64,000 nucleotides of DNA from a virus (taxonomy: Duplodnaviria > Caudoviricetes): the IMG/VR virus record IMGVR_UViG_2600255140_000004, positions 28,658 through 92,657 of that record, one strand, 5' to 3'. The notes under the pieces are model-generated. The model did no database searches and was not told where the DNA came from. It saw only the letters and a program-made list of their open reading frames with translations. A program made the position numbers and the translations under genes. This document shows, piece after piece, positions 2,182 to 59,340 of the stretch. Each line of letters starts with the position of its first letter. Positions within the stretch are counted from its first letter, which is position 1.

Positions 2182-2817
2182 CTACTCGTCCTCATTATCA
2201 AAATGATTATTCCTTAATACTTCCCGTAACAGTTCCATATCTTCTTTTGAATTGGGGTTTATCATTTTTACAACCTGATAAGGCGTACCGTACTTGTGTC
2301 CGTCTGTGCTTTCCCCAAACATATCCATGCTGTATAAATCATCATAGCGGTTTAATATTTTCTGAAATTTCAAGTGCTGGATAAATTCCTTGATAGGGTA
2401 AAGGTCGGACGCTTGTATCTCCGTTCCGTTGATATAGTCTGTGATGTATTTCCGCAACTGTTCCAGCTCATACTCCAGCCATTCTTCTTCGCTGTCAAAG
2501 AAGTTATCATAGTGTCCATGTTTCAACTCTGCATTTAGGCGTTCTTCCGTCCTTAAAAACTGGCAGACTTCCTTTTCGGCTTGATTAACATACTTCCATT
2601 TTCCCGACAATAATTCATTGGGCGTTACTCCCAGCACGTCCATTATCTTTTCCAGCGTATCAAAGGTAGGATAGTTTACCCCTCTTTCAATCTTGGAAAG
2701 GCTCTGCATATTGATACCGATTTTGTCCGCAAGCTCCTGCTGTTTCATTTTCCTGTGTTTTCTTATGGTCTGTATGTTCTCTCCTAAGAAAATCATTTTC
2801 TTTATATAACCCTCCAT
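2182..2817 (-). CDS. XRE-family HTH transcriptional regulator
   Basis: QQELADKIGINMQSLSKIERGVNYP HTH. Confidence 0.85.
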   Translation of the reverse strand: MEGYIKKMIFLGENIQTIRKHRKMKQQELADKIGINMQSLSKIERGVNYPTFDTLEKIMDVLGVTPNELLSGKWKYVNQAEKEVCQFLRTEERLNAELKHGHYDNFFDSEEEWLEYELEQLRKYITDYINGTEIQASDLYPIKEFIQHLKFQKILNRYDDLYSMDMFGESTDGHKYGTPYQVVKMINPNSKEDMELLREVLRNNHFDNEDE

Positions 2818-3145
2818 AACTTAGTATAACCGCTCCTTTCGTTGCTTTTCTTTCTGTTTATAAGCCTATCATACTTATTTTATTTTGAAAAGTCAATAAA
2901 AACTTCTTGACAAGTAATCCTGCTGGCGTTATTATCGTATCAGATGAAGTGATTAAGCACGCTAGGGTCAATCACACACTTGAGTAAGCATATAGATGAG
3001 TTGTTTTCGCTTTGACAGCATGAACAGGCATGGACTATCAGACCGAAAATCATGGTTTCCAAAAGGGGCTGGCTGGACGGGACACGTCCCCCAGACGTGT
3101 TTCGGACAGACAGTTCCTTTTGGAAAGGGAACGCCTTTAGGCGTT

Positions 3146-3177
3146 CGCAGAGGGCGTATATGTAACACCGCCCTGCG
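3146..3177 (+). other. Candidate oriT/nic hairpin of the MOBT relaxase
   Basis: AGGGCG-TATATGTAACAC-CGCCCT stem-loop just upstream of the relaxase; loop resembles the CTAA nic motif of Tn916/ICEBs1-type oriT. Confidence 0.5.
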
Positions 3178-3275
3178 TATACATGTCATGGTACCTAGAA
3201 ACTGTGATAAATAAAGGAAAAAATGCAATTTATACCCCGCAAAAAAATCGGGAAGTACGAAAGGAGAAATGCACT

Positions 3276-4367
3276 ATAACTACACACGAAAATTTATCCG
3301 TTAAGATTGATTACATCAGCATTGTATTTGAAACTACAACAGCAGAAGATGTTATCATGCACATTTTAGGTTTACCGACTGATATTTTCAATGTCTATCC
3401 AGCAACCGTAAAATTCAAGACCTATCAGACACGCTGGGAGATTGGGGATATTTATGTATCGGGGGACGCAAAAAAGACAGAGGACAACCCACAGGGACTT
3501 GGCTGTTATCTCGTCATGACAGGAAAAGGCTGTGATGATATTTTCCGTATCCTTGAAGATAAGGGCTTGACCTTTGGAGATATGTTCGGACGCTGTGAGC
3601 GAAGATATGGACTGGATAACTTCCATTTCACAAGACTTGATATTGCCATTGACGATAAGAACGAAAATCCATTCTTTACCATTGAGCAGATAAAGAAGAA
3701 ATGCGAAAAAGAGGAATTTATCTCAAACAGTGAGGGCTATAAGTTTGACGAAAGCAAGTTTGATGATTTCGACACCGCAAAGACTGTCTATATCGGAGCT
3801 GGAAAATCGGGATTGTCCTACCGCTTTTATGACAAGGATAAGGAAGTCTGTTCCAAGTATAATAAGTCGCTTGATGAAGTGGGGAGCTGGAAACGGACAG
3901 AAATGCAACTGCGTGACGAAAAGGCTCATGCCTTTGCCATGACATTCAAGGACAGACCGCTGGAACTTGGGGAACTGGCTTTCGGACTGCTGGCAAACAA
4001 CCTGCGCTTTGTCGTGCCAAACAGAAATGAAAGCAATAAGAGCAGATGGAAAACGTGTCGGTTTTGGGAACGCTTTTTAGGGGCTGTGGAAGTCTTGAAA
4101 CTGCAAGTACCAAAACAGCATAATTCCCTTGAAGAAACACAGCAATGGCTCACAGAGGGTGGCGTGATTTCAGCGGTCAAAAGTTTTTACTTCTTGGAAG
4201 AACATGACGCATTAGGTGGACTGGAAAAAGTGGGAACTATGCTGGATAAGGCAAGATACAGCAACTCCCTTTCCAGTAAACTAACTGCTCATTTACAGAG
4301 GATTGACCGCACCGACCTTATCCCCTATATCCAGTATGACACGAAACATGGGAAAGGGGGTATCTGA
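3276..4367 (+). CDS. Rep_trans family (MOBT) relaxase / replication initiator
   Basis: [28 protein letters not shown] motifs; SD at 3261-3266 points to an ATA start at 3276 (frame open from 3183). Confidence 0.88.
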
Positions 4368-4570
4368 TGAACAGCAACGATATTCCTGTATGGGAAAAAT
4401 ACACCCTTACCATTGAAGAAGCGTCAAAGTATTTCCGTATCGGAGAAAACAAGTTAAGACGCTTGGCAGAGGAAAACAAGGACGCTGGCTGGCTCATTAT
4501 GAACGGCAACCGCATACAGATTAAACGCCGACAGTTTGAACAAGTTATTGACAAACTGGAGGCAATCTAA
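4367..4570 (+). CDS. xis: Tn916-type excisionase
   Basis: [26 protein letters not shown]. Confidence 0.92.
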
Positions 4571-4648
4571 TGCAAATGAGCCTTGTATGTGTTATGATGA
4601 GCACAAGTCATATCAAGGCTCTTTCCAACAGGGAAAGGAGCAGACACC

Positions 4649-5842
4649 ATGAAAGAAAAAAGACGGGATAGCAAAGGACGTATCCTGCATACTGGAGAGA
4701 GCCAACGAACAGACGGGAAATACTTATATAAATATGTGGACGCATTTGGAAACACAAAATATGTGTATGCCTGGAGATTGACACCCACAGACCCGACACC
4801 AAAGGGAAAACGGGAAAAACCCTCGCTCCGAGAACTGGAACAGCAGATAAGACGGGATATGGAGGACGGTATCGACAGCACAGGCAAGAAAATGACGCTT
4901 TGCCAGCTCTACGCCAAACAGAACGCACAGAGGGCAAACGTGAAGAAAAGCACACAGAAACAACGGGAACAGCTCATGCGGTTATTGAAAGAGGACAAGC
5001 TGGGTGCTAGGAGCATTGATACGATAAAACCCTCTGACGCTAAGGAATGGGCGTTACGCATGAAAGAAAAGGGCTTTTCCTACAATACCATTAACAACCA
5101 TAAACGCTCGTTAAAAGCGTCATTCTATATCGCCATACAGGACGATTGTGTGAGGAAGAACCCTTTTGATTTCAAGCTGAGTGAAGTCCTAGAAAATGAT
5201 ACGAAAGAGAAAGTCGCATTGACAGAGGAACAGGAACAAGCCTTACTGTCATTCATCAAAACGGACAACGTGTATCACAAGTATTATGATGATGTGCTGA
5301 TACTGTTAAAGACTGGACTTCGTATCTCGGAATTGTGCGGACTGACAGTAGCCGATATTGATTTCAAGAATGAGGTTGTGGTTATCGACCACCAGTTATT
5401 AAAAAGCAAGGAACAGGGCTATTATATTGAAACGCCTAAGACAAAGAACGGAATAAGGCAAGTTCCATTAAGCAGAGAAACGATACAGGCATTTCAACGG
5501 GTCATAAGGAAACGCACAAAAGGGAAACTGATAGAGATAGACGGATACAAAGATTTTCTGTTCATCAATCCGAAAGGCAATCCCAAAGTGGCGATTGATT
5601 ACAACGCCTTATTTGTCCGTATGGTAAAGAAATACAACAAACACCACGAGGACAATCCCCTGCCACATATCACACCGCATACGCTACGCCATACGTTCTG
5701 CACGAGATTGGCAGGCAGGAACATGAACCCGAAAGATTTACAGTATATCATGGGGCATTCAAACATCAGTATCACAATGAACTGGTACGCTCATGCGTCC
5801 ATAGATACCGCAAAATCAGAGGTTCAGCGTCTAATCGCATAG
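4649..5842 (+). CDS. int: Tn916-family tyrosine integrase
   Basis: N-terminal arm-binding domain, TGLRISE, HTLRHTF, MGHSNISITMNWY. Confidence 0.95.
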   Translation: MKEKRRDSKGRILHTGESQRTDGKYLYKYVDAFGNTKYVYAWRLTPTDPTPKGKREKPSLRELEQQIRRDMEDGIDSTGKKMTLCQLYAKQNAQRANVKKSTQKQREQLMRLLKEDKLGARSIDTIKPSDAKEWALRMKEKGFSYNTINNHKRSLKASFYIAIQDDCVRKNPFDFKLSEVLENDTKEKVALTEEQEQALLSFIKTDNVYHKYYDDVLILLKTGLRISELCGLTVADIDFKNEVVVIDHQLLKSKEQGYYIETPKTKNGIRQVPLSRETIQAFQRVIRKRTKGKLIEIDGYKDFLFINPKGNPKVAIDYNALFVRMVKKYNKHHEDNPLPHITPHTLRHTFCTRLAGRNMNPKDLQYIMGHSNISITMNWYAHASIDTAKSEVQRLIA

Positions 5843-12598: not shown

Positions 12599-12649
12599 TG
12601 GAGCAGATGAATATTCAGATATGTGTTTTAGCTTGAAAAAAACAAAAAA

Positions 12650-12723
12650 TGGAAGCAATGGGGCTCGAACCCATGACCTCTCGCGTGTGAGGCGAACGCT
12701 CATCCCGGCTGAGCTATGCTTCC
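12650..12723 (-). tRNA. tRNA-Val (anticodon CAC)
   Basis: GGAAGCA/TGCTTCC acceptor stem, TAGCTCAG D arm, CT-CAC-AC loop, GGTTCGAGCCC T arm; CCA not encoded. Confidence 0.93.
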
Positions 12724-12732
12724 ATACCTGTA

Positions 12733-19288: not shown

Positions 19289-19531
19289 GTTTCCCCTCTG
19301 GTATTAATAAGTAGGATATATTTTAGCACAACCGTAACGCCCCATCAACAGATTGTTGGCGACCGTAGGTGACTTCAGGGGGATTGTGCTGGAAGAAAGC
19401 AAAAAGAGCGGCGCTGATGCCGCTTTTTTGCATGGAACCGCTGGAATATGAGGCGCTTTCCAAATGTTCCTGTTCTATTGTAGCAGGAAGAGCTTTGGCA
19501 CACAAGGAGGTATTTCTGTTTTCCAAAAACC

Positions 19532-19544
19532 CATATTAAGGATG
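19532..19544 (+). promoter_or_regulatory. First of ~20 CAWATT-N6-R promoter-like motifs of the large element
   Basis: Same motif found upstream of genes at 20472, 21632, 25698(-), 28985, 31755, 33721, 34748, 35911, 36478, 39239, 42591, 43692, 44618, 45335, 45958, 47447, 50477, 55064(-), 55139. Confidence 0.7.
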
Positions 19545-19568
19545 ATTCCAATGGAGGGGGAAGGGGAA

Positions 19569-20261
19569 GTGAAAAAAATTTTGCCTATCATATTGCTGGT
19601 CATAACTACAATCACTACTACTGGGAACAAGGCAGATAGCAGAGCGCCTGATCCACCCGGAGAAAAAGTGCTGTATGGGCGGGTGTATGAACGTGTAGGC
19701 GAGACGGTTTCTGGAGCGGGCATCTATTCCAATCCTGAGAATAACCGGGCAAAGCACTATGTCCTTGCAGCTATCGAAGATGCGGGGCTCCACGATGGGA
19801 TGAGTGACTTTGAAAAAGCATGCGCGGTCAATGCGTATCTGGTGGACGAGCTTTCTTATGCGGATTATGCGACAGTGGAGGGGTATCCATATAAAGAAGA
19901 CTATGTGCCGTTCACGGACTACTGCTTGCTTTCGGACCATGCGGTATGTGCCGGGTATGCGGAAGCGTTCCAGTCCATGTGCTGTGCGCTGGGGATTGAA
20001 TGCTGGTATGTGACCGGATATGTCAGCAAAAGAGGGGAAATCTGTTATCACGCATGGAACTGCGTTGTGATCGGAGGCATGAGATATTATATGGATCCGT
20101 GCCTCAATGACGGATCAGATAATGCTTTCTGCATGTCCGAAACACTGTGGGCGACCCATGCAGTAGAGAAGGAGCACGAGATTTTCCGGATCAGCGGGCA
20201 GCGGCTGCCGTTCCCGGATTTGGTTCAGGAAAGACACCTGTCCGGGTGTGTGGTATACTGA
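19569..20261 (+). CDS. Secreted transglutaminase-like cysteine protease
   Basis: Signal peptide; VCAGYA, HAWN, YMDP catalytic triad. Confidence 0.85.
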   Translation: MKKILPIILLVITTITTTGNKADSRAPDPPGEKVLYGRVYERVGETVSGAGIYSNPENNRAKHYVLAAIEDAGLHDGMSDFEKACAVNAYLVDELSYADYATVEGYPYKEDYVPFTDYCLLSDHAVCAGYAEAFQSMCCALGIECWYVTGYVSKRGEICYHAWNCVVIGGMRYYMDPCLNDGSDNAFCMSETLWATHAVEKEHEIFRISGQRLPFPDLVQERHLSGCVVY

Positions 20262-20265
20262 CGCC

Positions 20266-20346
20266 AGAGTTAAGGACGGACGGGCGGTAAGCCCTTTACG
20301 ATAGATTTTTCCTCCTATCAGGAGCCGTAGGAAAGCCTGCGGCTCT
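20266..20346 (+). ncRNA. Candidate anti-RBS sRNA, unit 1
   Basis: TG-N-TATACT at 20251-20259; GGGC/GCCC hairpin, TTTTTCCTCCTAT seed, strong 3' hairpin. Confidence 0.5.
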
Positions 20347-20359
20347 GGATATTGACGAG

Positions 20360-20445
20360 ACGGGGCCTTTGCCCCTATACATAAATTGACTACTCCTATT
20401 AATGATCGGAAAGGCGGGGCTTGGCAGATGGCTGGTCCCGTTTTT
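20360..20445 (+). ncRNA. Candidate anti-RBS sRNA, unit 2
   Basis: Paralogous to unit 1; GGGGC/GCCCC hairpin, CTCCTATTAATGAT seed, intrinsic terminator with T5. Confidence 0.55.
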
Positions 20446-20514
20446 CCGTGAATGGGATTTCACGAATTCCTCAAATTAACTATGGAAAATATTCATTATA
20501 AGGAGGAAAGGAAT

Positions 20515-21207
20515 ATGAACAGATACTATTACACTTATGGGAACGGGAACGGGAGCGATGGCGGGGGATGGACTGAGGTTGTCGCACAGGACATGCGGGA
20601 GGCTCATGAAGTTTTCAAAAAACACCATCCGTGCCTTTCCCACGGAGTCCTCAATTGTGCGGATTATTATACGGAGGCGACATTTAGGGGAACCGGAATG
20701 CGGGAAGGGAATTTCGGCAGGAAATGCAGGGAAGTCCTTTTTTCAGAAACAGCGCAGAAAGAAGGTGCGCTTATCCGTTATCGGTTTTTGACAAAAGCAG
20801 AGGACTATCGCCCGTTAAAGGATATGGAAAAAATCCGGATGCCGTGGTGGTGCACTGCGGAAGGAACCGGGGTTTCCATTATCGTCTGCTATCTGCCCCT
20901 GATGTTGGCACTCCACGATTTCTGGCCGGATGCTTTTGACATTGAATGGGAAGATAAAACGGAGATTGAGTACACAGACCGGTTTGTAAAGCCGGACTGG
21001 ATGCCGGAGCCGACAGAAAAGGAAACGCTATGGGCGTATGAAATCCTTGATCTTGCAAAAGGCATCGTGTGGGCTCCGGACAGGGAGGCGGCAGAGGTAA
21101 GGGTACGCAGACACTATGAAAATTACCCGTCTTATAGCCGGCATACCCAAGTCCGTATCAACGTTCCTGCTTGCGACTATGAGAATGGCGTATATGAGTG
21201 GAGGTGA
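20515..21207 (+). CDS. Hypothetical multi-domain phage/ICE protein
   Basis: YYYTYG..GGWTEV, LNCADYY; strong RBS. Confidence 0.7.
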   Translation: MNRYYYTYGNGNGSDGGGWTEVVAQDMREAHEVFKKHHPCLSHGVLNCADYYTEATFRGTGMREGNFGRKCREVLFSETAQKEGALIRYRFLTKAEDYRPLKDMEKIRMPWWCTAEGTGVSIIVCYLPLMLALHDFWPDAFDIEWEDKTEIEYTDRFVKPDWMPEPTEKETLWAYEILDLAKGIVWAPDREAAEVRVRRHYENYPSYSRHTQVRINVPACDYENGVYEWR

Positions 21208-21211
21208 CCGT

Positions 21212-21559
21212 ATGAGAGATTCAAGGTTTTTAGAGGACATTGAAGACGCTGCCCTTTTGATGCAATACTTATATGAAGGGAATACGGTTACGGTAAAGAA
21301 TGCCATCGGAGTGCCATTGGAGATAACCATGGATGAAGAAGGGTACATTTTCCAAAAGAACTTGAATTTCCCAGAGTCTCCCAGGCATTTGAAAGCCTAC
21401 CAGCTTCCGGAATGGCTGGGGATCATTGACCAGTTGAAAGGACAGCCAGAGGAAAATCTGGCGGATGCGAACACCGGAAATGGGTTCCAAAATCAATGGG
21501 ATGAAATACGTTTCATTACCCTTGCAAACCGTTCCCTACGCAAAGTGAAAAATCGCTGA
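21212..21559 (+). CDS. Hypothetical protein
   Basis: GGAGGTGA RBS, followed by a terminator. Confidence 0.65.
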   Translation: MRDSRFLEDIEDAALLMQYLYEGNTVTVKNAIGVPLEITMDEEGYIFQKNLNFPESPRHLKAYQLPEWLGIIDQLKGQPEENLADANTGNGFQNQWDEIRFITLANRSLRKVKNR

Positions 21560-21571
21560 CTGGCGATAGGT

Positions 21572-21600
21572 AAAAGAAGCCATCCTTGGCTTCTTTTTTT
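21572..21600 (+). terminator. Intrinsic (bidirectional) terminator
   Basis: AAAAGAAGCCA-TCCT-TGGCTTCTTTTTTT. Confidence 0.75.
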
Positions 21601-21711
21601 AAGCAGTGGCCCAATGCTCCGGGATGAAAACCATATTATTGATAACACTTCGTGCCACATGAAGGCGGATATGCCTGGGTTTGTATAATTAAGGAAAAAG
21701 GAGGATTTTTT

Positions 21712-22599
21712 ATGCTCATTATTATTGACGGGAGTTCTATGCTGTCATCGGCATATTATGCCACGCTGCCTAAAGGCGGCGCAGGCGAGATCATGCACAC
21801 AAGGGATGGGGTATATACGAACGGTGTCCTTGGCATGTTACGTTCCATATTTAAGATCATCAGGGAGCAGAAACCGGAGTACCTCGCATTCGCATTTGAC
21901 CAGACTCGGAATACGTTCCGGCGTGAGATATACCCTGCCTATAAGGCGACCCGGAAGGAAACCCCGGAACCGTTAAAGCAGCAGTTTGCCACTATGCAGC
22001 ATATCTTGGAAATCTTCGGTTTCCGTATTTTCTGTTCCGGGTGTTATGAGGCGGACGATTACGCGGCAAGCCTTGCAGAGCGTTTCTGCAGGAAGGTGCC
22101 GGAAACATTGCTGGTCACACGGGATATGGACTATCTGCAGCTTGTGGACGACGCAAGACGGATACGGGTACAGTTAAAGAAAGTGTACACGGAGAAGGAA
22201 CTGAAGGAGGATTACGGCCTGTCTGAAGGAAGGCAAGTCGTGGAGTATAAGGCGCTGGTAGGGGACAAGTCAGATAACATTCCCGGCGTGAAAGGGATAG
22301 GGCCAAAAGCGGCTGTGCCGCTGTTACAGAAATACGGGTCAGTCACTGCGCTTTATCAGGCAGTGGATGCGGGTACGCTTAACTGCAGAACCCTTGGCAT
22401 TCGGAAGGACGTTTTCCGCTGCCTGGAAAAGGGGCGGGAATCCGCATTCCTATCCCTGCGCCTGGCGGAAACAAAGCGGGATATCGACCTTGGCGTATCA
22501 CTTTCCGACCTCCGATACTGCATCAGCCAGGACACCGTGCGCGAGGTCATACGCAGCTATGAGCTGGATTCACTAAAAAATGTTATGGGAGGGAAATAA
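21712..22599 (+). CDS. Stand-alone 5'-3' exonuclease / flap endonuclease (PolI N-terminal domain)
   Basis: IIDGSS, YPAYKATR, EADD, DMDYLQL, GDKSDNIPGVKGIGPK. Confidence 0.92.
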   Translation: MLIIIDGSSMLSSAYYATLPKGGAGEIMHTRDGVYTNGVLGMLRSIFKIIREQKPEYLAFAFDQTRNTFRREIYPAYKATRKETPEPLKQQFATMQHILEIFGFRIFCSGCYEADDYAASLAERFCRKVPETLLVTRDMDYLQLVDDARRIRVQLKKVYTEKELKEDYGLSEGRQVVEYKALVGDKSDNIPGVKGIGPKAAVPLLQKYGSVTALYQAVDAGTLNCRTLGIRKDVFRCLEKGRESAFLSLRLAETKRDIDLGVSLSDLRYCISQDTVREVIRSYELDSLKNVMGGK

Positions 22600-23544
22600 A
22601 TGCGGGAAATAATAGTTGCCCTGTTGGTGGGGCTTGCCCTGTGCGGGTGTTCCAGGGCGGAGTATGAAGACGAAAATATCCGGATCACACAGTATACAGG
22701 AGTAGAATCAGGAGCGCTATCGCCTACGGCGATCACAGATGCGGATGTAGATGCAGAAATTGGTGAAATCCTGGATGCGAACGCAGAAAAGGCCGAGACA
22801 TCACGGGCGGCCGGGAAAGGGGATATTGTTGTAATCGACTACACGTCGGAAACGGACAGCAGTCTGGATCTTGAGCTGCCAGTCACCGCGGACGGAGGGC
22901 TCCAGGAAAGCCTTGCCGGGCATAAGAAAGGGGAGCGCTATGAATGGGTGGATCCGGTTGGCAATATATATACGGTTACCGTAAAAATGGTCATGGAAAA
23001 ACATGTGCCGGAGCTTACGGATGCATTTGTGAAAACAGTGTCCCGAACAACAGGAACGGTAAAAGAATTCCGGGGGGAAGTCAAAAAGCAGCTTGAGGAT
23101 AGGGCGGAAAGGGAGTATCGGGCGCAGCTGGCGGACGGGGCTTTTGATGCGGTCCTCGCGAATACCGAGGTCCTGCAGTATCCGGATTTGACGGACATAG
23201 AGAATGAAATAAAGAGTCAGTACCAGGAGGCTGCAAACGATAGCGGCGTGGATTATGAGACATATATCCGGGATTATATCGGACAGAGCTTGGATAAATT
23301 CGATGAAGGGATTCAGGAGGCGTCAAAGGCGCAGGCGAAAGAAACCATGGCTGTGCGCGCAATCGCGGACCAGGAAAAACTGATTCAGACGGAAAAGGAG
23401 CAGGCAACAGCATTGGAGGCGCTTGCCAAGGAATACGGGTATGAAGATGCCGCTGCGATGGAGAAAGATATCGGCAGGGACCGGGCGCTGAGCTATGCCA
23501 TGGCATACGCTGTCAGGGAATGGCTCGCAGACCATGCAAAATAG
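22600..23544 (+). CDS. Trigger-factor-like chaperone with lipoprotein signal
   Basis: LALCGC lipobox; ITDADVDAEI, GDIVVIDY, PELTDAFV, AIADQEKL; no ribosome-binding GFRxGxxP motif. Confidence 0.8.
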   Translation: MREIIVALLVGLALCGCSRAEYEDENIRITQYTGVESGALSPTAITDADVDAEIGEILDANAEKAETSRAAGKGDIVVIDYTSETDSSLDLELPVTADGGLQESLAGHKKGERYEWVDPVGNIYTVTVKMVMEKHVPELTDAFVKTVSRTTGTVKEFRGEVKKQLEDRAEREYRAQLADGAFDAVLANTEVLQYPDLTDIENEIKSQYQEAANDSGVDYETYIRDYIGQSLDKFDEGIQEASKAQAKETMAVRAIADQEKLIQTEKEQATALEALAKEYGYEDAAAMEKDIGRDRALSYAMAYAVREWLADHAK

Positions 23545-23628
23545 AATTCGGCTCAGGAAAATGACGCATGCGGGAATATGATAAACTAAAGACATAGACG
23601 AGATTGGCGTAAGCCGTATACGAATAGA

Positions 23629-24333
23629 TTGTCCTCTTTTAATGAAATGGGAAACGGCGGGGCCTTGCGGCTCCGCTTTTTCCTGCCAAATTTTTGGGTT
23701 GCTGACAGCACCGTGCCGGAGGCTGTTGTAGACCGCATGCGTATGGAATCACACCTGACCGTCCGCAAGACGTGTGACAAAGCGGTACGTCTGATGTACT
23801 GCGAGCTTTTGGCGGCGGAGCATGGCGTTGACAGGGAGTTCGTGAAACGTGCGATGGACGTGTTCGGGTGTTCTGACCGCTACTGCCGCCAGTTCCGTGA
23901 TGTCATAGTGAACGGAACGCCGTATCTGAAACAATGCCTGTATATGGGCGAGAAGATTCGGGTCGGTGAGGCTGCACATATCGCGAATACCGCTCCGGGG
24001 GACGAGGCCATGCAGAAAGTTCTTCTGAAAGAACATCTGGAAAAGCGTGAGATGAAACGCAAGCTTTCGGCAAGGAGCGTGACGTTCCCATCCATGGGAG
24101 CCAATACAATGCCGTGCAAGCCACCGGCATCTATTACGGCGGCGTCTGATTCAGAGATGCCCTGTAAGCCAGCAATTCCTGAAATGCCGTGCGAGGAATC
24201 CCCGGCTGTCGGGATGCTGCTCCAGAGTATGCGGCAGTTCTGCGCGAACGGCAAGTTAAACCTGCCGGATGTTTCCAAACAGGAACTTTTGTCACTATGC
24301 CACAAGCTGATGTCCATGTATGGGGAGGTGTAG
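23629..24333 (+). CDS. Hypothetical protein, possible ParB-like HTH region (start uncertain)
   Basis: Helical FGCSDRYCRQF segment resembles VSDRYSRMY of the ParB at 57304. Confidence 0.5.
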   Translation: MSSFNEMGNGGALRLRFFLPNFWVADSTVPEAVVDRMRMESHLTVRKTCDKAVRLMYCELLAAEHGVDREFVKRAMDVFGCSDRYCRQFRDVIVNGTPYLKQCLYMGEKIRVGEAAHIANTAPGDEAMQKVLLKEHLEKREMKRKLSARSVTFPSMGANTMPCKPPASITAASDSEMPCKPAIPEMPCEESPAVGMLLQSMRQFCANGKLNLPDVSKQELLSLCHKLMSMYGEV

Positions 24334-24335
24334 GA

Positions 24336-24716
24336 ATGAAAGCAGGATGTTATCTGATCTTCGTCCGCAACGAAGCCACGGGCTGTCTCCGGCTTGCTGC
24401 GACAGGGAATCCCCAGGCATGTGTGGAGAAAATGGAAAACATGTCGGGATGCGATATGAGCATCGTGTTCCAGATTGGCTATCCCAGCGTGGAGGAAGCG
24501 ACGGAACGCAAGGATGTGATGAAAGTAGCGCTTGCGCCATACAAAATAAAGGCGGCAGTGAACGGGAAGAAACGTTCGCGGTTTGGAAGCTGGTTCCTCC
24601 CCGAGGCATGGGGGCATCTGGCCGTTGCGCCTGAAGTGCTGGAAGAGGCAGTTGAAGAACTGTATAATTTTTACGATGGCGAGTTATGGATGCTGCAGGA
24701 TTCCCTCCCTGTCTGA
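24336..24716 (+). CDS. Degenerate T5orf172/GIY-YIG-like protein
   Basis: YLIFVRNE..LRLAATGNP..GSWF pattern; catalytic motif altered. Confidence 0.45.
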   Translation: MKAGCYLIFVRNEATGCLRLAATGNPQACVEKMENMSGCDMSIVFQIGYPSVEEATERKDVMKVALAPYKIKAAVNGKKRSRFGSWFLPEAWGHLAVAPEVLEEAVEELYNFYDGELWMLQDSLPV

Positions 24717-31200: not shown

Positions 31201-31716
31201 ATGCTTGTGTTGAAGGAAAACCGGATCAGCTTTATCCAGGCTGCCATCGTACTTGTGATCATTCTCGCGGAAATCTTTCTCTTCCGTAAAGTGCTGATGA
31301 ATGCATATATCCCGAGCGAGTCGATGGAACCGACGTTCACGGAAGGGATGCGGCTGATTGCGACGAGGGAGGATAAAGTGGGGCGAGGGGATGTTATCAT
31401 CTTCCGGTTTCCGGGAGACCCGTCCGTGCATTACATCAAACGCGTGATCGGGCTGCCGGGAGACACGGTGGAGATTAAGGAGGACGGGGTATATGTCAAT
31501 GGGGAAACGCTTGAGGAACCGTATCTCAAGGAACGGATGAAAGTGCAGGATGAACAGATCTTCGTCGTGCCGGAAGATTCCTATTTCCTCATGGGTGATA
31601 ACCGGAACAACTCTTACGACAGCCGGGCATGGAAGGAGCCGTATGTGGACAAGAAATATGTCGAGGGGCATCCGAGGCTGGTTTACTGGCCGTTAAGCAA
31701 GGCGGGCGCAATCTAG
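31201..31716 (+). CDS. lepB: Signal peptidase I
   Basis: PSESMEPT, YIKRVIGLPGD, GDNRNNSYDSR. Confidence 0.95.
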   Translation: MLVLKENRISFIQAAIVLVIILAEIFLFRKVLMNAYIPSESMEPTFTEGMRLIATREDKVGRGDVIIFRFPGDPSVHYIKRVIGLPGDTVEIKEDGVYVNGETLEEPYLKERMKVQDEQIFVVPEDSYFLMGDNRNNSYDSRAWKEPYVDKKYVEGHPRLVYWPLSKAGAI

Positions 31717-34682: not shown

Positions 34683-34791
34683 AGTCCTAATAAGCAGTTG
34701 GAAACCCAGCTGCTTATTTTTTGGGAAACTTTTGCGTGCATTTTACAGATATTGGGGATGAAAAGATTTTCATTATAAGGAGGAAAAGAAC

Positions 34792-35859: not shown

Positions 35860-35954
35860 CTTTTATGGAAGAAACCGCGGGCAGGCGGTTTCTTTTTTGG
35901 GGGAAATTGCCAATTTGTCCATGAAAAAGAAAATCATTAAAGGAGGATTTTATT

Positions 35955-36505: not shown

Positions 36506-37288
36506 ATGAAACAAAAAATTGGAAACATCCTTTTCATTGCAAGTATCCTGCTCTTTGTAGCAGGCGGGTTCCTGTTGTCCCAGAAAATACAGGGGGACAA
36601 AGAGGCGGATAAAGTGTATGAAGAGGTTCGGGATGCTGTTTCTGAAGGCGATGATCCGGACGGGTTCACTGTGGACTGGGAGGCGCTTGAAGGTACAGAT
36701 GTGGTTGCATGGATCCGTGTCGGCAGCAGGATCAGCTATCCTGTGCTGCAGGGGAAGGACAATGCCGTCTATCTCCATCACCTGTATAACGGGAAATACA
36801 ATTATGCCGGAAGCATTTTCCTGCATGCTGCGTGTGCGGCGGATTTCACGGGCGACAACAGCATTGTGTACGGGCATAACATGCGTAACGGCTCGATGTT
36901 CGGCACTCTGAAAAGGTATCTTAAAAAGCCTGAAGACCCGTACTTTTACATCTACCTCCCTGATGGAACAAGGCACACATACCAGATTGCAAGCGTGGCG
37001 AATGTGAAGGACGGGACAAAAGCTTATACCTACCAGTTTGCAGATACCGGTGAGTTCGTGGAATACCAGAAGTACATGATCTCAAAGTCGGTATGGAACA
37101 CAGGGGCAAAAGCAGAAGAAAATGTGAAACTTGTATCCCTGTCAACCTGTTCCTCCATCGGATCCAAGCGCGGACACAGGATCATGATCCAGGGGATGGA
37201 ACGGGAGGTGCGCCAAGTACAGGAGCCGGCAAGCTGGTATTCGCCGCAGGACGAACCTGAAAACACAGAAATGGAAGGAGATATTTAA
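36506..37288 (+). CDS. srtB: Class B sortase
   Basis: N-terminal TM, ISYPVLQG, YGHNMRNGSMFG, LSTC. Confidence 0.92.
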   Translation: MKQKIGNILFIASILLFVAGGFLLSQKIQGDKEADKVYEEVRDAVSEGDDPDGFTVDWEALEGTDVVAWIRVGSRISYPVLQGKDNAVYLHHLYNGKYNYAGSIFLHAACAADFTGDNSIVYGHNMRNGSMFGTLKRYLKKPEDPYFYIYLPDGTRHTYQIASVANVKDGTKAYTYQFADTGEFVEYQKYMISKSVWNTGAKAEENVKLVSLSTCSSIGSKRGHRIMIQGMEREVRQVQEPASWYSPQDEPENTEMEGDI

Positions 37289-37785: not shown

Positions 37786-39090
37786 ATGTTGGACAAACAA
37801 TTGAAACGAAGATGTATGTTGACGGCGCTGGTGCTGCTTGGACTGAGGCTATTTCATCTAATCCCTGTTCCAGGGGTAGATACAGGGCATTTAGCCGGAA
37901 TGATGGAGAAGAACTCCCTGCTCGGGTTTCTGGACCATGTATCAGGGAACGGGCTTTCCGGCATGTCCATCATGGCCCTTTCCATCGGTCCATATATCAC
38001 GGCATCCATTGTGATGCAGCTTTTGGGCGAGGTGTTTCCAAAATTGAAGGACCTGCAAAAGGGGAAACCAGAGGAGCGCAGGTATTTTGGACGTATGACA
38101 CTTGGCATGTCTGCAGGAATTTCCCTGGCAGAGAGCGGGGTGCTGGCGCTTTCCTTCATGAAACAAAGGGTATTTCTGTCAAATATCTGGGCAGTGCCGG
38201 GCATTCTGCTCTGGAGCGTCGGTTCTATGGCACTTGCGGTGATCGGGAAACGTGTGACGGAGGATAAGGAGCATTTCATTGGCAATGGCATATCGTTGAT
38301 CTTGCTGGTCAATATCCTTGCCTCATATCCGGGTGACATTATGGAATACATCAACATGGTCATGCTGGGACCGGGAAACCGCGCGATGCCGGCAACACTG
38401 AGCATTGCTGGGGTTACCCTCCTGTTTGGTTTCACCGTATATATCCATTGCGTTGAAAAGAAGATTCCTGTGGTATACACGGGAAAAGTGGCGGCGGGCA
38501 GGAGCAGCGTTTCCACGCTGCCAGTCAGATTGTGCCCGGGAGGCGTGGTTCCGGTCATCTTTGCATCCGGACTGCTGTCTTTTGCCGTACTGGGGCTGCA
38601 GCTTGCAGGCAAGGAAGGCACATTTGCTGCGGGTCTGCTTAATGCTGCGAACTGGTTCCATACGGGAATGCAGGAGTATACGCTGGGTGTTGCGCTGTAC
38701 ATTGTGCTGATTTTTTTGTTCTCGTTCTACTACTCAGGTATGGCATTCAGTCCAAGAGAGACGGCAGAAACACTGAAAAAGAATGGGGGGCTTATCCCTA
38801 ATGTGCGTCCGGGGAAACCTACGGAAAGATATCTGCGGAAAGAGATGCGTAAAATGATAGCGGCCGGAGCCGCGGCATTGACGGTGATTGCCGTAATCCC
38901 GATTGCATTGAGCGGCGTGTTCGGGGTATCCCGGCTGTCGTTTTTTGGCACATCTGTCCTTATCACAGTCAGCGTGATCATGGAGACAAAAAAGGATATC
39001 GCCATGCAGATGCGGGCGGGAGAATATATGGCGAAAGCGAGGAAAGGAGGCCTGTTTTATGGGGAAAAAGCTTTATCTGCCAGCCGGTAA
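37786..39090 (+). CDS. secY: Preprotein translocase SecY paralog
   Basis: IPVPGVD, SIMALSIGPYITASIVMQLL, GNGISL, GGVVPVIFAS, IPNVRPGKPT, GTSVLITVSV. Confidence 0.93.
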   Translation: MLDKQLKRRCMLTALVLLGLRLFHLIPVPGVDTGHLAGMMEKNSLLGFLDHVSGNGLSGMSIMALSIGPYITASIVMQLLGEVFPKLKDLQKGKPEERRYFGRMTLGMSAGISLAESGVLALSFMKQRVFLSNIWAVPGILLWSVGSMALAVIGKRVTEDKEHFIGNGISLILLVNILASYPGDIMEYINMVMLGPGNRAMPATLSIAGVTLLFGFTVYIHCVEKKIPVVYTGKVAAGRSSVSTLPVRLCPGGVVPVIFASGLLSFAVLGLQLAGKEGTFAAGLLNAANWFHTGMQEYTLGVALYIVLIFLFSFYYSGMAFSPRETAETLKKNGGLIPNVRPGKPTERYLRKEMRKMIAAGAAALTVIAVIPIALSGVFGVSRLSFFGTSVLITVSVIMETKKDIAMQMRAGEYMAKARKGGLFYGEKALSASR

Positions 39091-39272
39091 GGATGTGGCA
39101 AGGGATACCGCTGTGACGATGATTCTGGCACTTGCCGCATCAGGAGTGCTGTCCTGCGTGGATATGGCGGCGGGAGGCATCCTCTCCTTGCTGTTCTGAA
39201 AGGAAACCTTAACAGGTTTCTTTTTTTACGGGTTCCTACAAATTGGAAATGAAAAATAAACATTAGAGGAGG

Positions 39273-41283
39273 ATGAAACAAATGGAAAAAACAATCAGGG
39301 AATTGGTGAACCAACTCAATCAGGCATCAGATGCCTATTACAATGGCGGAAGGGAGATCATGAGCAACAAGGAATACGACAGCCGGTATGAGCAATTGTC
39401 AAAGCTGGAGCAGGAGACAGGATATGTCTTTCCGGACTCGCCGACACAGAACGTAGGCGCTGTCGTGAATGGGCTCAGGACAGTCCGGCATGAGTATCCG
39501 GCGCTGTCTCTGGACAAGACGAAAGACGTGAAAAAATTTTCCGTATTTGATGTCAGGGACCGGCAGGCAGTTGTAATGTGGAAACTGGATGGGAGTACCT
39601 GCGTGGCGACATATGACGGGGGGGAAACTCCAGGTACTGGCAACACGCGGCAATGGCGAAACCGGCAGTGACATTACCCATAATGCCCCATATATCCGGG
39701 GCCTGCCAATGACTATACCTTATCACGGGAAAGTTGTGGTACGGGGAGAGGCTGTTATGTCTTATGCGGATTTCAAGCGCGTGAATGCAAGGTTCCCGGA
39801 GGAAGAGCAGTACAGGAACCCCAGGAATCTTGCAAATGCCACCGTGAAACTGTACGACAGCAACCTGCTGAAAAACAGGCCTGTCGCGTTCGTGGCTTTC
39901 CGGCTGGTAGCTATGGAAGGGCTGCCGGGAAGTTTCCACAAACAGTTGTCTGTGTTAAACACGCTTGGTTTCAATGTGGTGGAACATACGACTTGCCCGG
40001 CCAGCGTGCTGGCTGACACATTGGAAACGTATACCCGTATGGCGGAATCATATCCGTACCCAGTAGACGGGCTTGTAGTTGCCGCGAATGATGCGGCATA
40101 TGCGGATGAACAGCCAGGAACGGGGAAATTCCCCAATAAACTTTCAGGATATGCCCTGAAATGGGCAGATGAAACGGAAGAAACCGTTCTGAGGGATATT
40201 GAATGGTCAGCGTCGAGGACAGGGCTCCTGAACCCAATAGCTGTATTTGACCCGGTGGAGCTGGAAGGAACCACCGTATCGAGGGCGACGCTCCATAATG
40301 TATCTTATGTGCTGGAAAAAGACCTGAAAGCTGGGGATCGCATTACAGTGTATAAAGCAAATAAGATTATTCCGGCAGTCGATGAGAACCTGGATGCAGA
40401 CGGCGCTTTCAGCAAAGGAGGAGTGAGCCTGATGCAGGCGTATGCGAGATACCTCCTGCCCATGAAGTGCCCGGTATGCGGGGCGAATACATCACTGTTT
40501 GAGAGTAACGGGACCTTGTTCCTCAAGTGCCTGAATGAAGACTGTGCGGCTAAAAAGATTGGAGCGCTCGTCCATTATGCGGAGCGCGACTGCGTGAACA
40601 TCGCGGGACTCTCCGAGTCAAAGGTCACTGCGCTGGTCAATCGCGGGTTCCTTAAAGGCTTTGTGGACTTGTACCGCCTGGGACAGTATAGGGATGAGAT
40701 TATAGCTATGGATGGTTTTGGCGAGAAATCCTATGCCCAGCTCCAGAAAGCGGTACAAGCCTCCCGGGCACCCAGTTTTGTGCCATTCATTCATGCGCTC
40801 GGGATACCGAACATCGGCAAGGGCCAGGCAAAGCTGTTAAGGAACTGGCTGGGGGAGATGTACCCGGATACAGCGTATATGGATTCGTTTCTTGATGCGG
40901 CGGCTCACGGAGTGGATTTCACCGTCATAGACGGGTTCGGGAGCGTCATGGATAAAAGCCTCAAGGAATGGCTGTGCCAGAACATGCAGATGCTCACTGA
41001 GCTGCTCATGGAGCTGGAAGTCACAGAAAAGCCTTCCGGAAATGTCCTGTCGGCGATCAGCGGCAAGACGTTTGTCGTTACGGGGAAAGTCACGCATTTT
41101 GCGAACCGCGATGAGATCAGGGCGAAGATTGAAACCTTCGGCGGACGGACGGCAGGATCCGTGTCAAAAAACACGGACTTCCTGATCAACAATGATGTGG
41201 AAAGCACATCAGGCAAAAACAGGAAAGCGAAAGAACTTGGCATCCCAATTATTTCAGAAGAAGAGTTTCTTTCCATGTATTAG
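39273..41283 (+). pseudogene. ligA: NAD-dependent DNA ligase, frameshifted at a G7 run as assembled
   Basis: KLDG adenylation motif, TRGNG, Zn finger, HhH, BRCT; two ORFs join if G7 at 39618-39624 is G6. Confidence 0.9.
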
Positions 41284-42302: not shown

Positions 42303-42632
42303 AAGAAACACCTCCTTTATCAGTATGGCTTATTTTACAGCATACATACTTCCCTGTTTATATTGTATGGTTTTATTGCCACTTTTGCAACAAAATAACT
42401 ATGAATTTTTTTACCTACATTGTTGCCTCCTTCCCTTTTTCCTTATGGTTCTCCTGTTTCTCCTTTCCCGCTGCTTTCACTTTGAACGCCTCCAGCCTTT
42501 CTTTTAACGATACTCTCTGCACAGGCTTGTCAGCCATTGCCGCAGCAGTTCTAAGCCCTCCTTTTTTGTAAGAAAAATTTCTGATGTCATCAAATTATCC
42601 TTGAAAAGACAATCATTAAAGGAGGATTTGAT

Positions 42633-43679: not shown

Positions 43680-43756
43680 GGCGTTTTTTTTCATATTAAA
43701 CAGGGAAAGAAAAATGTCGAAAGGATTAAGGGCGGAAACCGCCGCCCGGGTGGTTG

Positions 43757-44581
43757 ATGATGGATGCCTTGGAATTGCTGAAAAAGAAACAACTGACTGC
43801 CGAAGAAGAACGGGCAGTATTTGAATATTATAAATTGCACCGCACCCAGGAAGTGCGGAATCTGATCGTTGAGAGAAATACCGGGCTGTGCCGGTATATT
43901 GCGAGACGGTTTTCGGGGCTGGGGCTCGAAGATGAAGAACTTGTACAGGAGGGCGTGATCGGGCTGATTACGGCTGTTGAAAAATTTGATGAGTCGCGGG
44001 GGATCAAGTTTTCTACCTATGCCTGCCATTGGATCCGGCAGGCAATCGGCAGGAGCGTGGTCAATACTGGGAAAATGATCCGTTTGCCAGTGCATATGGC
44101 AGATAAAGTTTGGAAGGTCTGTGAGTTTCAGAAAATATATAAGAATGAATATAACAAAATGCCAACAGAGAAAGAGATTGCAGAAGAGCTAGGCATGGGC
44201 ATGGAGAGTGTGGAGTCAGTGCTGTGCGTAATGGAAATGCAGAAACTCACTTCCCTGAACCGGCGGCTCCTCGAAGGGGATGACGACAAGGACAAAGAGA
44301 TTATAGATATCCTGGCTGATGAAAAAAACTCTGGTTTTGCTGAACAGGTAGAACAGGAATATGGCTATCAGGCAGTGCGTGAGCAAGTGGACAGGGTTCT
44401 GAGTACCCGTGAACGAGAGGTAATCTATATGAGGTTCGGGTTTGATGGAAGGAGACCGTTAACGCTTGAGGAAGTTGGGAGACATATGGGAGTTACCAGG
44501 GAGCGGATCCGGCAGATTGAAAACAAAGCCCTTGCCAAGCTGAGAAGAGGCGGGCGTAACCTGCAGGGCTTTGTCAGTTAG
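43757..44581 (+). CDS. RpoD-like sigma-70 factor lacking region 1.1
   Basis: LVQEGVIGLITAVEKFD, FSTYACHWIRQAI, IRLPVHM, TLEEVG..VTRERIRQIENKAL. Confidence 0.93.
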   Translation: MMDALELLKKKQLTAEEERAVFEYYKLHRTQEVRNLIVERNTGLCRYIARRFSGLGLEDEELVQEGVIGLITAVEKFDESRGIKFSTYACHWIRQAIGRSVVNTGKMIRLPVHMADKVWKVCEFQKIYKNEYNKMPTEKEIAEELGMGMESVESVLCVMEMQKLTSLNRRLLEGDDDKDKEIIDILADEKNSGFAEQVEQEYGYQAVREQVDRVLSTREREVIYMRFGFDGRRPLTLEEVGRHMGVTRERIRQIENKALAKLRRGGRNLQGFVS

Positions 44582-44659
44582 GAGTGCTTGTGCAGTTTCT
44601 TTTTGGGGGAGAATTTCCAAATTGTCTTTGAGAAGACAATCATTAAAGGAGGTTTTGCC

Positions 44660-45313
44660 ATGGAAAGCCAAATGAAACGGCTGAAAGAAGAGGCCGATAT
44701 CAAAACGGTCGTGGATGCGTTGGGGATTCCTGTGGAGAGGAAAGGCATGAATTATTTCCTGTGCTGCCCTTCCCCGGAGCATGACGACACGAACCCAAGT
44801 GCTTATTTTAAGGACGGATGGAATAATATTTACTGTAATTCTTGCTGCCGTGCCTTTAAAGCCCTTGACGTGATCATGATGACAGCTGGCTGGGATATAA
44901 AGGAGGCGGCAAATTACTTATGGGAACTCGAAGGCTGCCCGGACTGGTTCGTTGCAAGCGAGGAAGAGCGCATGTCCTTTTCCCTGACTCCGCAGGAGGC
45001 GCGTACTATTGGGCTCCGGCCAAGCGGGGAGGCAGCATGCTGCGTGTCATATGGCGATATGAAACGCCCGCTCAGGTTGAATGAGCACTATGCTCCACAT
45101 GTGACATACGGGTATCTGAAAGTGAAGAATACCCGTGTGTCATGGAAGGATTTTATGTCGGAGCAGGAGTTTGCCGGGCTGGTCATACGCAAGGCGGCAG
45201 AGGCGGCAGAGACGTACAGGCGTTACGGAATGAAAAGGGAAACCGATCAGGCGATTGCGGTGCTGCGGCGCGCAGCCAAAGCCCGACAGGCTTGGGAGAG
45301 ACTGTCAGCGTGA
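44660..45313 (+). CDS. Protein with primase-type CHC2 zinc-binding domain, no TOPRIM
   Basis: CPSPEHDDTNPS..CNSC. Confidence 0.7.
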   Translation: MESQMKRLKEEADIKTVVDALGIPVERKGMNYFLCCPSPEHDDTNPSAYFKDGWNNIYCNSCCRAFKALDVIMMTAGWDIKEAANYLWELEGCPDWFVASEEERMSFSLTPQEARTIGLRPSGEAACCVSYGDMKRPLRLNEHYAPHVTYGYLKVKNTRVSWKDFMSEQEFAGLVIRKAAEAAETYRRYGMKRETDQAIAVLRRAAKARQAWERLSA

Positions 45314-45930: not shown

Positions 45931-45999
45931 TGCCCTTCCTTTTTTCGGTGCTTTTCCCAAATTGTCATTGTAAAAATTTCATTAAGAGGAGGAACTGAT

Positions 46000-50432: not shown

Positions 50433-50519
50433 ATGCAACCGCAGGGCTCCCTGCGGTTTTTTCCTGCCTGTTTGTACATATTTCTGAAGAAATAATTTCA
50501 TTAAGAAGGAGGAAGAAAA

Positions 50520-59234: not shown

Positions 59235-59340
59235 AACAGATGTAAAAACTTAATAAAGATATAGATTTGTAAGCACAAGGTTTTTGTGGTATGATTGTAT
59301 ACACCATGAAAGCCTTTTTACATATGAAAGGAAGTATTGT

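Follow-up and report, generated by a model that had tools for sequence, protein, structure and literature searches.

A large island in the genome of a Lachnospiraceae-type mouse-gut bacterium carries a shared leader in front of many of its genes and, on the same strand, a small family of structured modules, one of which is specifically complementary to that leader. The part analyzed here (the window) is a stretch of 64,000 nucleotides (nt) from IMG/VR record IMGVR_UViG_2600255140_000004, which corresponds to C2:434,393-498,392 in the coordinates of the host genome. Three copies of a module of roughly 100 nt, about 70% alike and each with one CU-rich stretch, are clustered in a 3.4-kb part of the window near replication and repair genes (including a 5'-3' exonuclease gene at 21652-22599) and are called unit 1 (u1), unit 2 (u2) and unit 3 (u3). 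The favored reading, with a probability of about 0.4, is that a plus-strand RNA, possibly derived from a 3' untranslated region (UTR), acts in trans to repress the regulon defined by the leader. A first-pass annotation of the window had proposed RNAs of this kind at u1 and u2. The leader of the element and complementary plus-strand modules with terminators are indeed present, but the two units named in that annotation are the weaker ones and the support comes from u3, which lies outside the coordinates given there and was not among the named units.

According to this reading, a plus-strand RNA ending at the u3 terminator would be a small regulatory RNA, and an RNA terminated at u2 would be a weaker candidate. 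The RNA would either have a promoter of its own or arise by release from the upstream operon's 3' UTR. Pairing in trans between its unpaired stretch and AUCAUUAAAGGAGGAUU of the shared leader would cover the Shine-Dalgarno (SD) sequence up to the start codon and so lower translation of the leader genes, which include dnaN, dnaE, the Gp157, NT5C-kinase and LPD1 genes, a RecJ-like gene, five pentapeptide/DUF5758 genes and others. The evidence base is one genome and sequence analysis alone; it establishes the repeat family, its folds, the terminators and how specific the complementarity of u3 is, and from it we infer a discrete RNA species, its strand, its 5' end and any repression. As a candidate for an anti-leader RNA, u3 is credible.

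The shared leader and its complementarity to unit 3

The leader has a fixed order: the T-run of a terminator, about 10 nt, CCAAATT, 3-4 nt, (C/T)NTGAAAAG, 4-5 nt, (T)CATTAAAGGAGG, 7-8 nt and ATG. Approximately 14 full copies occur on the plus strand between C2:334,550 and 484,891, and the leader modules of the island each have a terminator upstream. The first-pass annotation had described a ribosome binding site (RBS) leader shared by dispersed genes of the element. That motif is real, with 5 matches to TCATTAWNAGGAG at no more than one mismatch against 0.64 expected, and it is more elaborate than had been stated. Four of the five matches stand before plus-strand genes; the other one is the u2 seed in reverse complement (the CU-rich stretch of a unit is referred to as its seed). 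On the matches found, the leader is specific to the island. Read by eye as a promoter, it fits none of the sigma-A, SigH, SigE/K or SigF/G types.

The third copy was located while the upstream sequences of genes were being listed, in the gap that follows gene 22600-23544, which encodes a trigger-factor-like protein. The 5' half of u3 consists of GACGAGA (23597-23603), a small hairpin (23605-23616) and TATAC (23617-23621). The seed GATTGTCCTCTTTTAATGAAAT (23627-23648) comes next and leads into an intrinsic terminator (23649-23684; scan tool call, 23656-23677) that has 9 pairs, 7 of them GC, before its T-run, with T5 at 23677-23681. The unit folds at -25.3 kcal/mol (z -3.28), and its seed, like that of u2, is unpaired in both the minimum-energy and the centroid folds.

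Complementarity was ranked over the genome by calculating the duplex energy of each seed with the region from -35 to +15 of 14,976 candidate start sites (an SD-like motif 4-13 nt before ATG, GTG or TTG, and an open reading frame (ORF) of at least 60 codons), 531 of which (3.5%) fall in C2:330-495 kb and set the baseline for the island. With the u3 seed, island sites make up 7 of the top 20 (six leaders and one copy of an insertion sequence (IS)) and 21 of the top 100, and the best four of all the sites are leaders (-23.4, -23.4, -23.4 and -21.9 kcal/mol). The leaders as a group score -16.1 to -23.4 kcal/mol, at percentile 0.02-1.8, and 10 of the 14 lie at percentile 0.16 or better; in 12 of the 14, 12-16 contiguous pairs (G.U counted) cover the SD.

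The seeds of the other two units give a different picture, since neither has an island site among its top 20 and only 2 (u2) and 3 (u1) of the top 100 are from the island. The u2 seed forms 6-8 contiguous pairs with the leaders in a duplex of 8 bp, a bulge and 5 bp (-12.0 to -16.4 kcal/mol; percentile 0.25-7.8), and several hundred host sites match it as well as the leaders do. For u1, the leaders are spread over percentiles 2-48, and this seed is a generic anti-SD sequence. The u2 seed had been put forward in the first-pass annotation as an anti-leader sequence, to be judged by the rank of the element leaders among host sites. The leaders do lie above the average for u2 but are not ranked over host sites, and the comparison goes against the proposal for u1 and u2 alike.

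A chance match between u3 and the leader is unlikely, because of a shuffle control and a reverse scan of the genome. When the u3 seed was ranked on the 531 island sites together with 1,500 host sites, 17 of the top 20 belonged to the island; 30 shuffles of the seed that kept its CCTCT core placed on average 6.0 and at most 13 island sites in the top 20, and none of the 30 reached 17. When the leader was scanned against both strands of the genome, 21 scan positions paired at -23 kcal/mol or better. Fifteen of these are on the opposite strand of leaders and four on the opposite strand of other sites with an SD and ATG, and the remaining two are u3 and one C1 site inside a coding-looking region. 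The pairing model assumes that CAUUAAAGGAGG / UCAUUAAAGGAGG lies in the leader mRNA; with a transcription start downstream of UCAUUA, the greater part of the specific pairing would be lost.

Units 1 and 2 and the three-copy family

The first two units lie in an intergenic gap of 253 nt (20262-20514) that separates the plus-strand genes 19464-20261, which is transglutaminase-like by Pfam, and 20515-21207, for which a family search gave no match. Both sequences reported in the first-pass annotation are present (u1 from 20276 and u2 from 20354), and the anatomy described there, with a small GC hairpin, an unpaired CU-rich stretch, a strong 3' hairpin and T5 in u2, agrees with sequence and folding. 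In u1, GACGGAC is followed by a 4-bp GC hairpin (20282-20294), TTTAC and the CU-rich TTTTTCCTCCTAT (20306-20318); the 3' hairpin of 11 bp (20321-20346) has no T-run. Folding places UUUUUCCUCCUAU in the unpaired stretch of u1, and the seed becomes partly paired once it is folded within a longer RNA. In u2, GACGAGA (20354-20360), a 5-bp GC hairpin (20362-20375) and TATAC (20376-20380) make up the 5' half. About 30 unpaired bases (20376-20406) contain CTCCTATTAATGAT (20393-20406), including CUCCUAUUAAUGAU, and are followed by a terminator-like hairpin (20407-20448; about -26 kcal/mol) with T5 at 20441-20445. Folded as a 67-nt RNA, u2 reaches -26.4 kcal/mol (z -3.11) with its seed unpaired.

The u2 and u3 sequences align over their full length through GACGAGA, the small hairpin, TATAC, a spacer of about 10 nt, the CU-rich stretch and UUAAUGA, after which GGAAA-GGCGGGGC opens the terminator hairpin with T5 in both. 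An nhmmer profile built from u2 and u3 themselves found the two copies in the 4.46-Mb genome with E values of 1.6e-25 (u2) and 1.3e-22 (u3), the next best match having an E value of 2.9; u1 was not recovered at E<10. A looser motif of the 5' half (GACG.GA, hairpin, T[AT]TAC, ATT) has exactly three matches in the genome, u1, u2 and u3 (23597), and for this reason u1 is regarded as a member of the family, but as a decayed copy that has lost UUAAUGA and the T-run. The homology of u1 and u2 claimed in the first-pass annotation therefore stands for the common 5' motif, while u1 taken as a whole is a weak copy. The genes that flank u2 and u3 are not paralogous, so that the module was duplicated without its neighbors.

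The stems of the small hairpins differ in sequence yet pair (GGGC/GCCC, GGGGC/GCCCC and UGGC/GCCG). Two strain variants in metatranscriptome contigs fall in the 5' half: 23605 T>C converts U.G to C-G in the u3 hairpin, and 20296 T>A changes TTTAC of u1 to the TATAC of the other copies. That pairing has been kept in the small hairpin despite the change of sequence is, with three copies, only suggestive. The same feature bears on the possibility that the units work as DNA, either as a protein-binding site or operator or as a site of single-strand initiation or processing, and are not RNA genes. An inverted repeat with an adjacent conserved motif is an arrangement that occurs at nick and initiation sites, and each copy has a short inverted repeat and then the conserved TATAC. 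The close grouping of the copies (all within 3.4 kb) beside replication and repair genes and the conjugative type of the island, which has a VirD4-like protein of the CD1115 family, would also suit a DNA element. Sequence-specific protein sites, however, usually keep their sequence, whereas here the stem keeps its pairing; the T-run terminators and the leader complementarity would be left with no role, and no relaxase or replication-initiator gene adjoins the units. A function at the DNA level is considered highly improbable.

The whole gap folds strongly on the plus strand (z -4.17; 0 of 200 shuffles fold as well) and less well on the minus strand (z -2.43; 2 of 200), and it is only on the plus strand that the hairpins end in T-runs. 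Both observations count against a minus-strand gene, in which these bases would form the leader and beginning of a small ORF of 28 amino acids (aa) (ATG at 20382) or 55 aa (20296-20463). On that strand u2 does read TCATTAATAGGAG, 10 nt and ATG, an exact match to the leader pattern. The start codon, however, is found in one copy of the three, u3 having ATT and u1 ATC, and indels of 1 nt and 2 nt between u2 and u3 fall inside the supposed coding part. There is moreover no space for the promoter part of the leader between the hairpin and TCATTA, and a Pfam search with the ORFs gave no match at E up to 1. A minus-strand gene, including the 28-aa ORF that the first-pass annotation had itself named as the alternative to its proposal, is hardly probable at all.

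A copy of the leader (20470-20514) lies directly downstream of the u2 terminator, and its SD AAGGAGGAAA is paired with UUUUUCCUCCUAU of u1 when the whole gap is folded, in the centroid as in the minimum-energy structure. The duplex calculated for u1 and this leader has 11 bp and -15.3 kcal/mol. The CU-rich stretches of u1 and u2 could form an insulator in cis that sequesters the SD (20498-20511) on read-through, such that only transcripts from the own promoter of the gene are translated, and a metatranscriptome contig (20249-20550) does span both units and the gene start. The pairing that u1 shows with a strong SD is of a generic kind, however, as seen from the percentiles of the leaders (2-48), and u3, which matches the leader best, precedes a gene without a standard leader and has its best partners 10-120 kb away. 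For u1 and u2 a role in cis is plausible, but it leaves u3 unexplained, and as an account of the units insulation is distinctly unlikely.

Possible transcription of the units and points against an anti-leader RNA

Metatranscriptome contigs from mouse-gut samples cover both loci, contig X18 spanning 20249-20550 and contig X15 23476-23715; both are strand-less. Two other contigs stop at 20295 (X17) and at 20282 with adapter sequence (X19). The contigs as a whole are treated as evidence neither way. Before u1, the promoter scan reported the TG-N-TATACT that the first-pass annotation had assigned to a SigA-type promoter, in a sigma-70-like arrangement with AAGACA-17 (20231-20259) that overlaps the upstream stop codon. 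The sequences seen by eye before the other units fall below the criteria of the tool and are not convincing: TTGACG-N18-TATACA (20352-20381) for u2, with a -10 element that lacks the final T, and ATGACG-N15-TG-N-TAAACT for u3. Because these promoters are weak, the RNA may be the 3' end of an upstream operon and not an independent gene. GATATT had been taken for a motif of the element itself, but the counts do not bear this out: compared with an expectation of about 19, the plus strand has 33 copies and the minus strand 27, most of them in coding sequence.

Several considerations weigh against the anti-leader reading. The four metatranscriptome runs are assembled contigs without strand, ends or level, and carry-over of DNA is possible. 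Contig X18 passes the u2 terminator into the next gene, which either argues against a clean 3' end at u2 or reflects DNA. The scan tool calls no sigma-70 promoter for u2 or u3, and the sole promoter that it does call precedes u1, the weakest copy. In the ranking, duplex energies ignore the accessibility of the target and the start-site set is a crude call of our own. The seeds of u1 and u2 lack leader enrichment among their top-ranked targets, and as u2 and u3 are homologous the UUAAUGA that they share is one event and not two. Across the genomes, phages and viral contigs searched, the unit family was found in this island only.

The complementarity could also stem from an inverted partial copy of the leader, and this is the basis of the main rival explanation. 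The units would be an ordinary 3' UTR and terminator, and the anti-leader stretch a decaying inverted fragment of a leader and gene start, duplicated together with its terminator and without regulatory function. Read in reverse complement, each unit resembles a leader with a spacer and, always at the same place, a start-like codon (ATG in u2, ATT in u3 and ATC in u1). In addition, decay is evident in u1 and the match of u2 to the leader has already become poor, a terminator is expected at these positions since each island leader has one upstream, and no promoter is called for u2 and u3. Such a relic does not account for three features. The likeness to the leader is confined to the part expected in the mRNA (CATTAA..AGGAG and a few bases), with CCAAATT..TGAAAAG absent; the 5' half (GACGAGA, hairpin, TATAC) is conserved throughout the family, without a counterpart in the leaders or anywhere else in the genome; and u3 holds 15-16 contiguous pairs, equaled by one other non-trivial site in 8.9 Mb (both strands). 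A relic is considered somewhat unlikely.

Possible role in the biology of the island

If an anti-leader RNA is made, its position may allow feedback. Gene 20515, which has a leader, opens a series of plus-strand genes that u3 closes, and if the genes from 20515 to u3 are one transcription unit, a feedback loop would result. A more far-reaching proposal is an RNA switch for 'zygotic induction', in which a conjugative island of about 165 kb would place at least 14 establishment and replication genes under one leader and encode its own repressor as u3. In such a switch u2 would be a weaker paralogue and the RNA would sit at the 3' end of a leader-driven operon; the regulon would fire after transfer until the RNA accumulates and would be silent when integrated. 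We regard this switch as unlikely. Silencing while integrated and a replication regulon, both put forward in the first-pass annotation, would be interpretations of the same kind, and the leader also precedes pentapeptide/DUF5758 and RecJ-like genes.

If the anti-leader reading is correct, one mobile element controls dispersed genes of its own through one leader and one trans-acting RNA, and this pair would provide an experimental handle on a very large and otherwise uncharacterized gut island. If the units are not expressed, they are a small repeat family beside ordinary terminators.

Comparison with known regulatory systems

In the FinP/traJ system, a short structured RNA of a conjugative plasmid pairs with the 5' leader and RBS of a plasmid gene and represses that gene. 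FinP is transcribed opposite its single target, so that the complementarity is perfect by construction. The units are like FinP in that a structured RNA of a conjugative element, as proposed here, is aimed at an RBS leader. FinP, however, is cis-encoded and has one target, whereas the units lie kilobases to more than 100 kb from many proposed targets. Neither u2 nor u3 is a cis-antisense RNA, as no plus-strand leader overlaps them and the nearest one (20470-20514) is downstream on the same strand.

The CiaR-dependent small RNAs (csRNAs) of streptococci occur as several similar copies per genome, and many have two stem-loops, the second being a terminator, with an unpaired anti-SD or anti-start-codon region between them (as described in part of the report PMC3091779). 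To the extent of that description, the units and the csRNAs are alike in copy number, in the two stem-loops, in the unpaired anti-SD region and in the terminator. The units differ in that they have no Rfam match (E up to 10) and no sign of a CiaR-type promoter. The csRNAs described there belong to a streptococcal host and have chromosomal targets, whereas the proposed target of the units is the leader of one mobile element in a Lachnospiraceae-type host.

LhrC1-5 of Listeria monocytogenes is a multicopy small RNA of about 110 nt with CU-rich motifs that bind the SD and block translation; four copies are at one locus and one is elsewhere, and the system is chromosomal and induced by LisRK (from part of PMC4132741). 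The units resemble LhrC, as portrayed in that part of the account, in being multicopy and in having a single-stranded CU-rich anti-SD motif. The LhrC copies are described there as almost identical with three redundant CU-rich motifs, whereas the units are about 70% alike, have one such stretch and are only predicted to be expressed. The units fall outside the csRNA and LhrC families, and in anatomy they match the Gram-positive anti-SD small RNAs.

In plasmids of the pLS20 family, establishment genes in several operons share a conserved upstream regulatory sequence and so form a regulon, and in clade II a repressor encoded by the element makes expression after transfer transient (described in part of PMC8708921). 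As far as this part of the source goes, the regulator there is either a ribbon-helix-helix protein or unknown, and what the genes share is a sequence of 400-600 bp or an operator. In the island, by contrast, the shared module measures about 45 nt and the proposed regulator is an RNA that acts on translation. The same portion of that source indicates that understood conjugative-plasmid regulons of this kind use a protein repressor (PMC8708921). A literature search of incomplete coverage found no described trans-acting small RNA of an integrative conjugative element that is aimed at a shared leader.

Distribution of the units and the leader

At the Rfam gathering score, the whole window contains a tRNA-Val (12649-12724) and no other match. 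Searches of 20200-20560 and 23530-23760 with E values up to 10 gave drum (score 16.7, gathering 43), Fibro-purF (16.6, gathering 60) and rli61 (20.7, gathering 50), all far below gathering. The DNA of the gap with u1 and u2 had only short matches of the RBS-leader type in 200 genomes of the same family, blastn with 19464-24400 found no match in the phage collection, and the two unit patterns had 0 matches in viral contigs. Neither the viral contigs nor the contigs of species-representative genomes held a locus for the trigger-factor-like protein, and a 230-aa protein matched one viral contig (38% identical over 75 residues) with unrelated AT-rich upstream sequence. For the LPD1 protein there was no close relative in 400 genomes of the family.

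The leader pattern had 0 exact matches in the species-representative genomes. It was present in 10 metagenome contigs, where the best matches are this island itself (93.6-99.7% identical) and none spans the units. In the viral contigs it had one match, which is about the chance expectation by our own estimate. This single match is at 3948-3972 of IMG/VR contig L011, with TGAAAAG-N4-TCATTAAAGGAGGATTAT before ATG. These searches yielded no diverged relative of the island and no close relatives of the neighboring proteins, and the island appears to be rare.

The island and its genes

The island covers approximately C2:327-495 kb (about 165 kb), and the element thus reaches about 107 kb upstream of the window. 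Its left end is just after the host homoserine O-succinyltransferase gene, and its right end is an integrase gene at 59284-60549 of the window (about C2:495 kb). It is a large island of the conjugative type, with a VirD4-like coupling protein that scores 454 bits for the CD1115 family (cut-off, 250). It contains several extra integrases and an IS21-like element and is therefore probably composite. Other genes encode a cell-wall hydrolase (glucosaminidase), an actin-like segregation protein, SSB, RecD2, RecJ, dnaE, dnaN and ligase products, an RpoD-like sigma factor, SecY, a signal peptidase, a sortase, a PARP-domain protein, a TQ-ester adhesin and a group II intron reverse transcriptase.

The units and the full leaders of the window are collected in Table 1. 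A variant of the leader precedes gene 33768. Up to 100 kb upstream of the window (C2:334,550-424,652), leader modules precede five pentapeptide plus DUF5758 genes and one RecJ-like gene. CCAAATT, the first box of the leader, also occurs directly after the u3 terminator (23685-23700); TGAAAAG, CATTA and AGGAGG are absent there, and a good SD at normal spacing is also lacking before the next gene, which starts at 23713 or 23737.

Table 1. Units and leader copies in the window (positions are those of the window)
Feature	Position	Strand	Basis or remarks
u1, degenerate copy	20273-20348	+	Sequence, fold, 5' motif regular expression
u2	20351-20452	+	Sequence, fold, u2+u3 profile
u3, third copy	23594-23692	+	Sequence, fold, u2+u3 profile, terminator scan
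Leader of gene 20515-21207	20470-20514	+	CAAATT, TATGGAAAA, TTCATTATAAGGAGG, 7 nt, ATG
Leader of dnaN-like gene (34792)	34746-34791	+	
Leader of Gp157-family gene (35955)	35911-35954	+	u3 duplex -20.1 kcal/mol
Leader of NAD-ligase N-terminal piece (ATG 39282)	39238-39281	+	u3: 16-pair run, -19.9 kcal/mol
Leader of NT5C/guanylate-kinase gene (42633)	42590-42632	+	
Leader before ATG 44661, DnaG zinc-ribbon gene region	44617-44660	+	
Leader of LPD1-domain gene (46000)	45957-45999	+	
Leader of dnaE-like gene (50520)	50474-50519	+	

The five pentapeptide-repeat plus DUF5758 genes behind leaders (C2:334568, 353731, 354513, 414584 and 423921) are paralogous. Their DUF5758 domains score 109-116 bits, and single copies elsewhere score 84-184 bits, all but one of them above 130. 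Among 300 other genomes of the family, 22 have DUF5758, in each case as a single copy that scores high and belongs to another subtype. Pentapeptide proteins can mimic DNA, and an anti-restriction role of the island proteins is conceivable.

The NAD-dependent DNA ligase appears to be split into two overlapping frames, 39273-39671 and 39589-41283, one with the N-terminal Ia domain and the other with the adenylation, OB and BRCT domains from profile position 62. A frameshift, a sequencing error and a programmed shift are all conceivable causes. Genes of a housekeeping type encode the trigger-factor-like chaperone (22600-23544), signal peptidase I (31201-31716), a sortase (36506-37288), SecY (37786-39090) and the RpoD-like sigma factor (43754-44581). 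The chaperone is nearly an orphan, its next-best protein match being 32% identical.

At least five start-site regions, C1:922481, C1:1861203, C1:2229425, C2:365036 and C2:764523, are identical over the 50 nt compared. The gene at C2:365036 encodes a protein with a Mu-transposase C-terminal domain and is followed by an IstB-like gene, and the five regions are probably copies of one IS21-like element across the genome. With any CU-rich seed its start sites come out near the top, and target lists are inflated by them. For two very long minus-strand ORFs, C2:383355-391982 (2,875 aa) and C2:392191-399945 (2,584 aa), Pfam gave no match at E up to 1e-5. A small nested mobile unit with a helix-turn-helix regulator, a Rep_trans rolling-circle initiator and a Tn916-type integrase occupies 2182-5842, at the window's left end.

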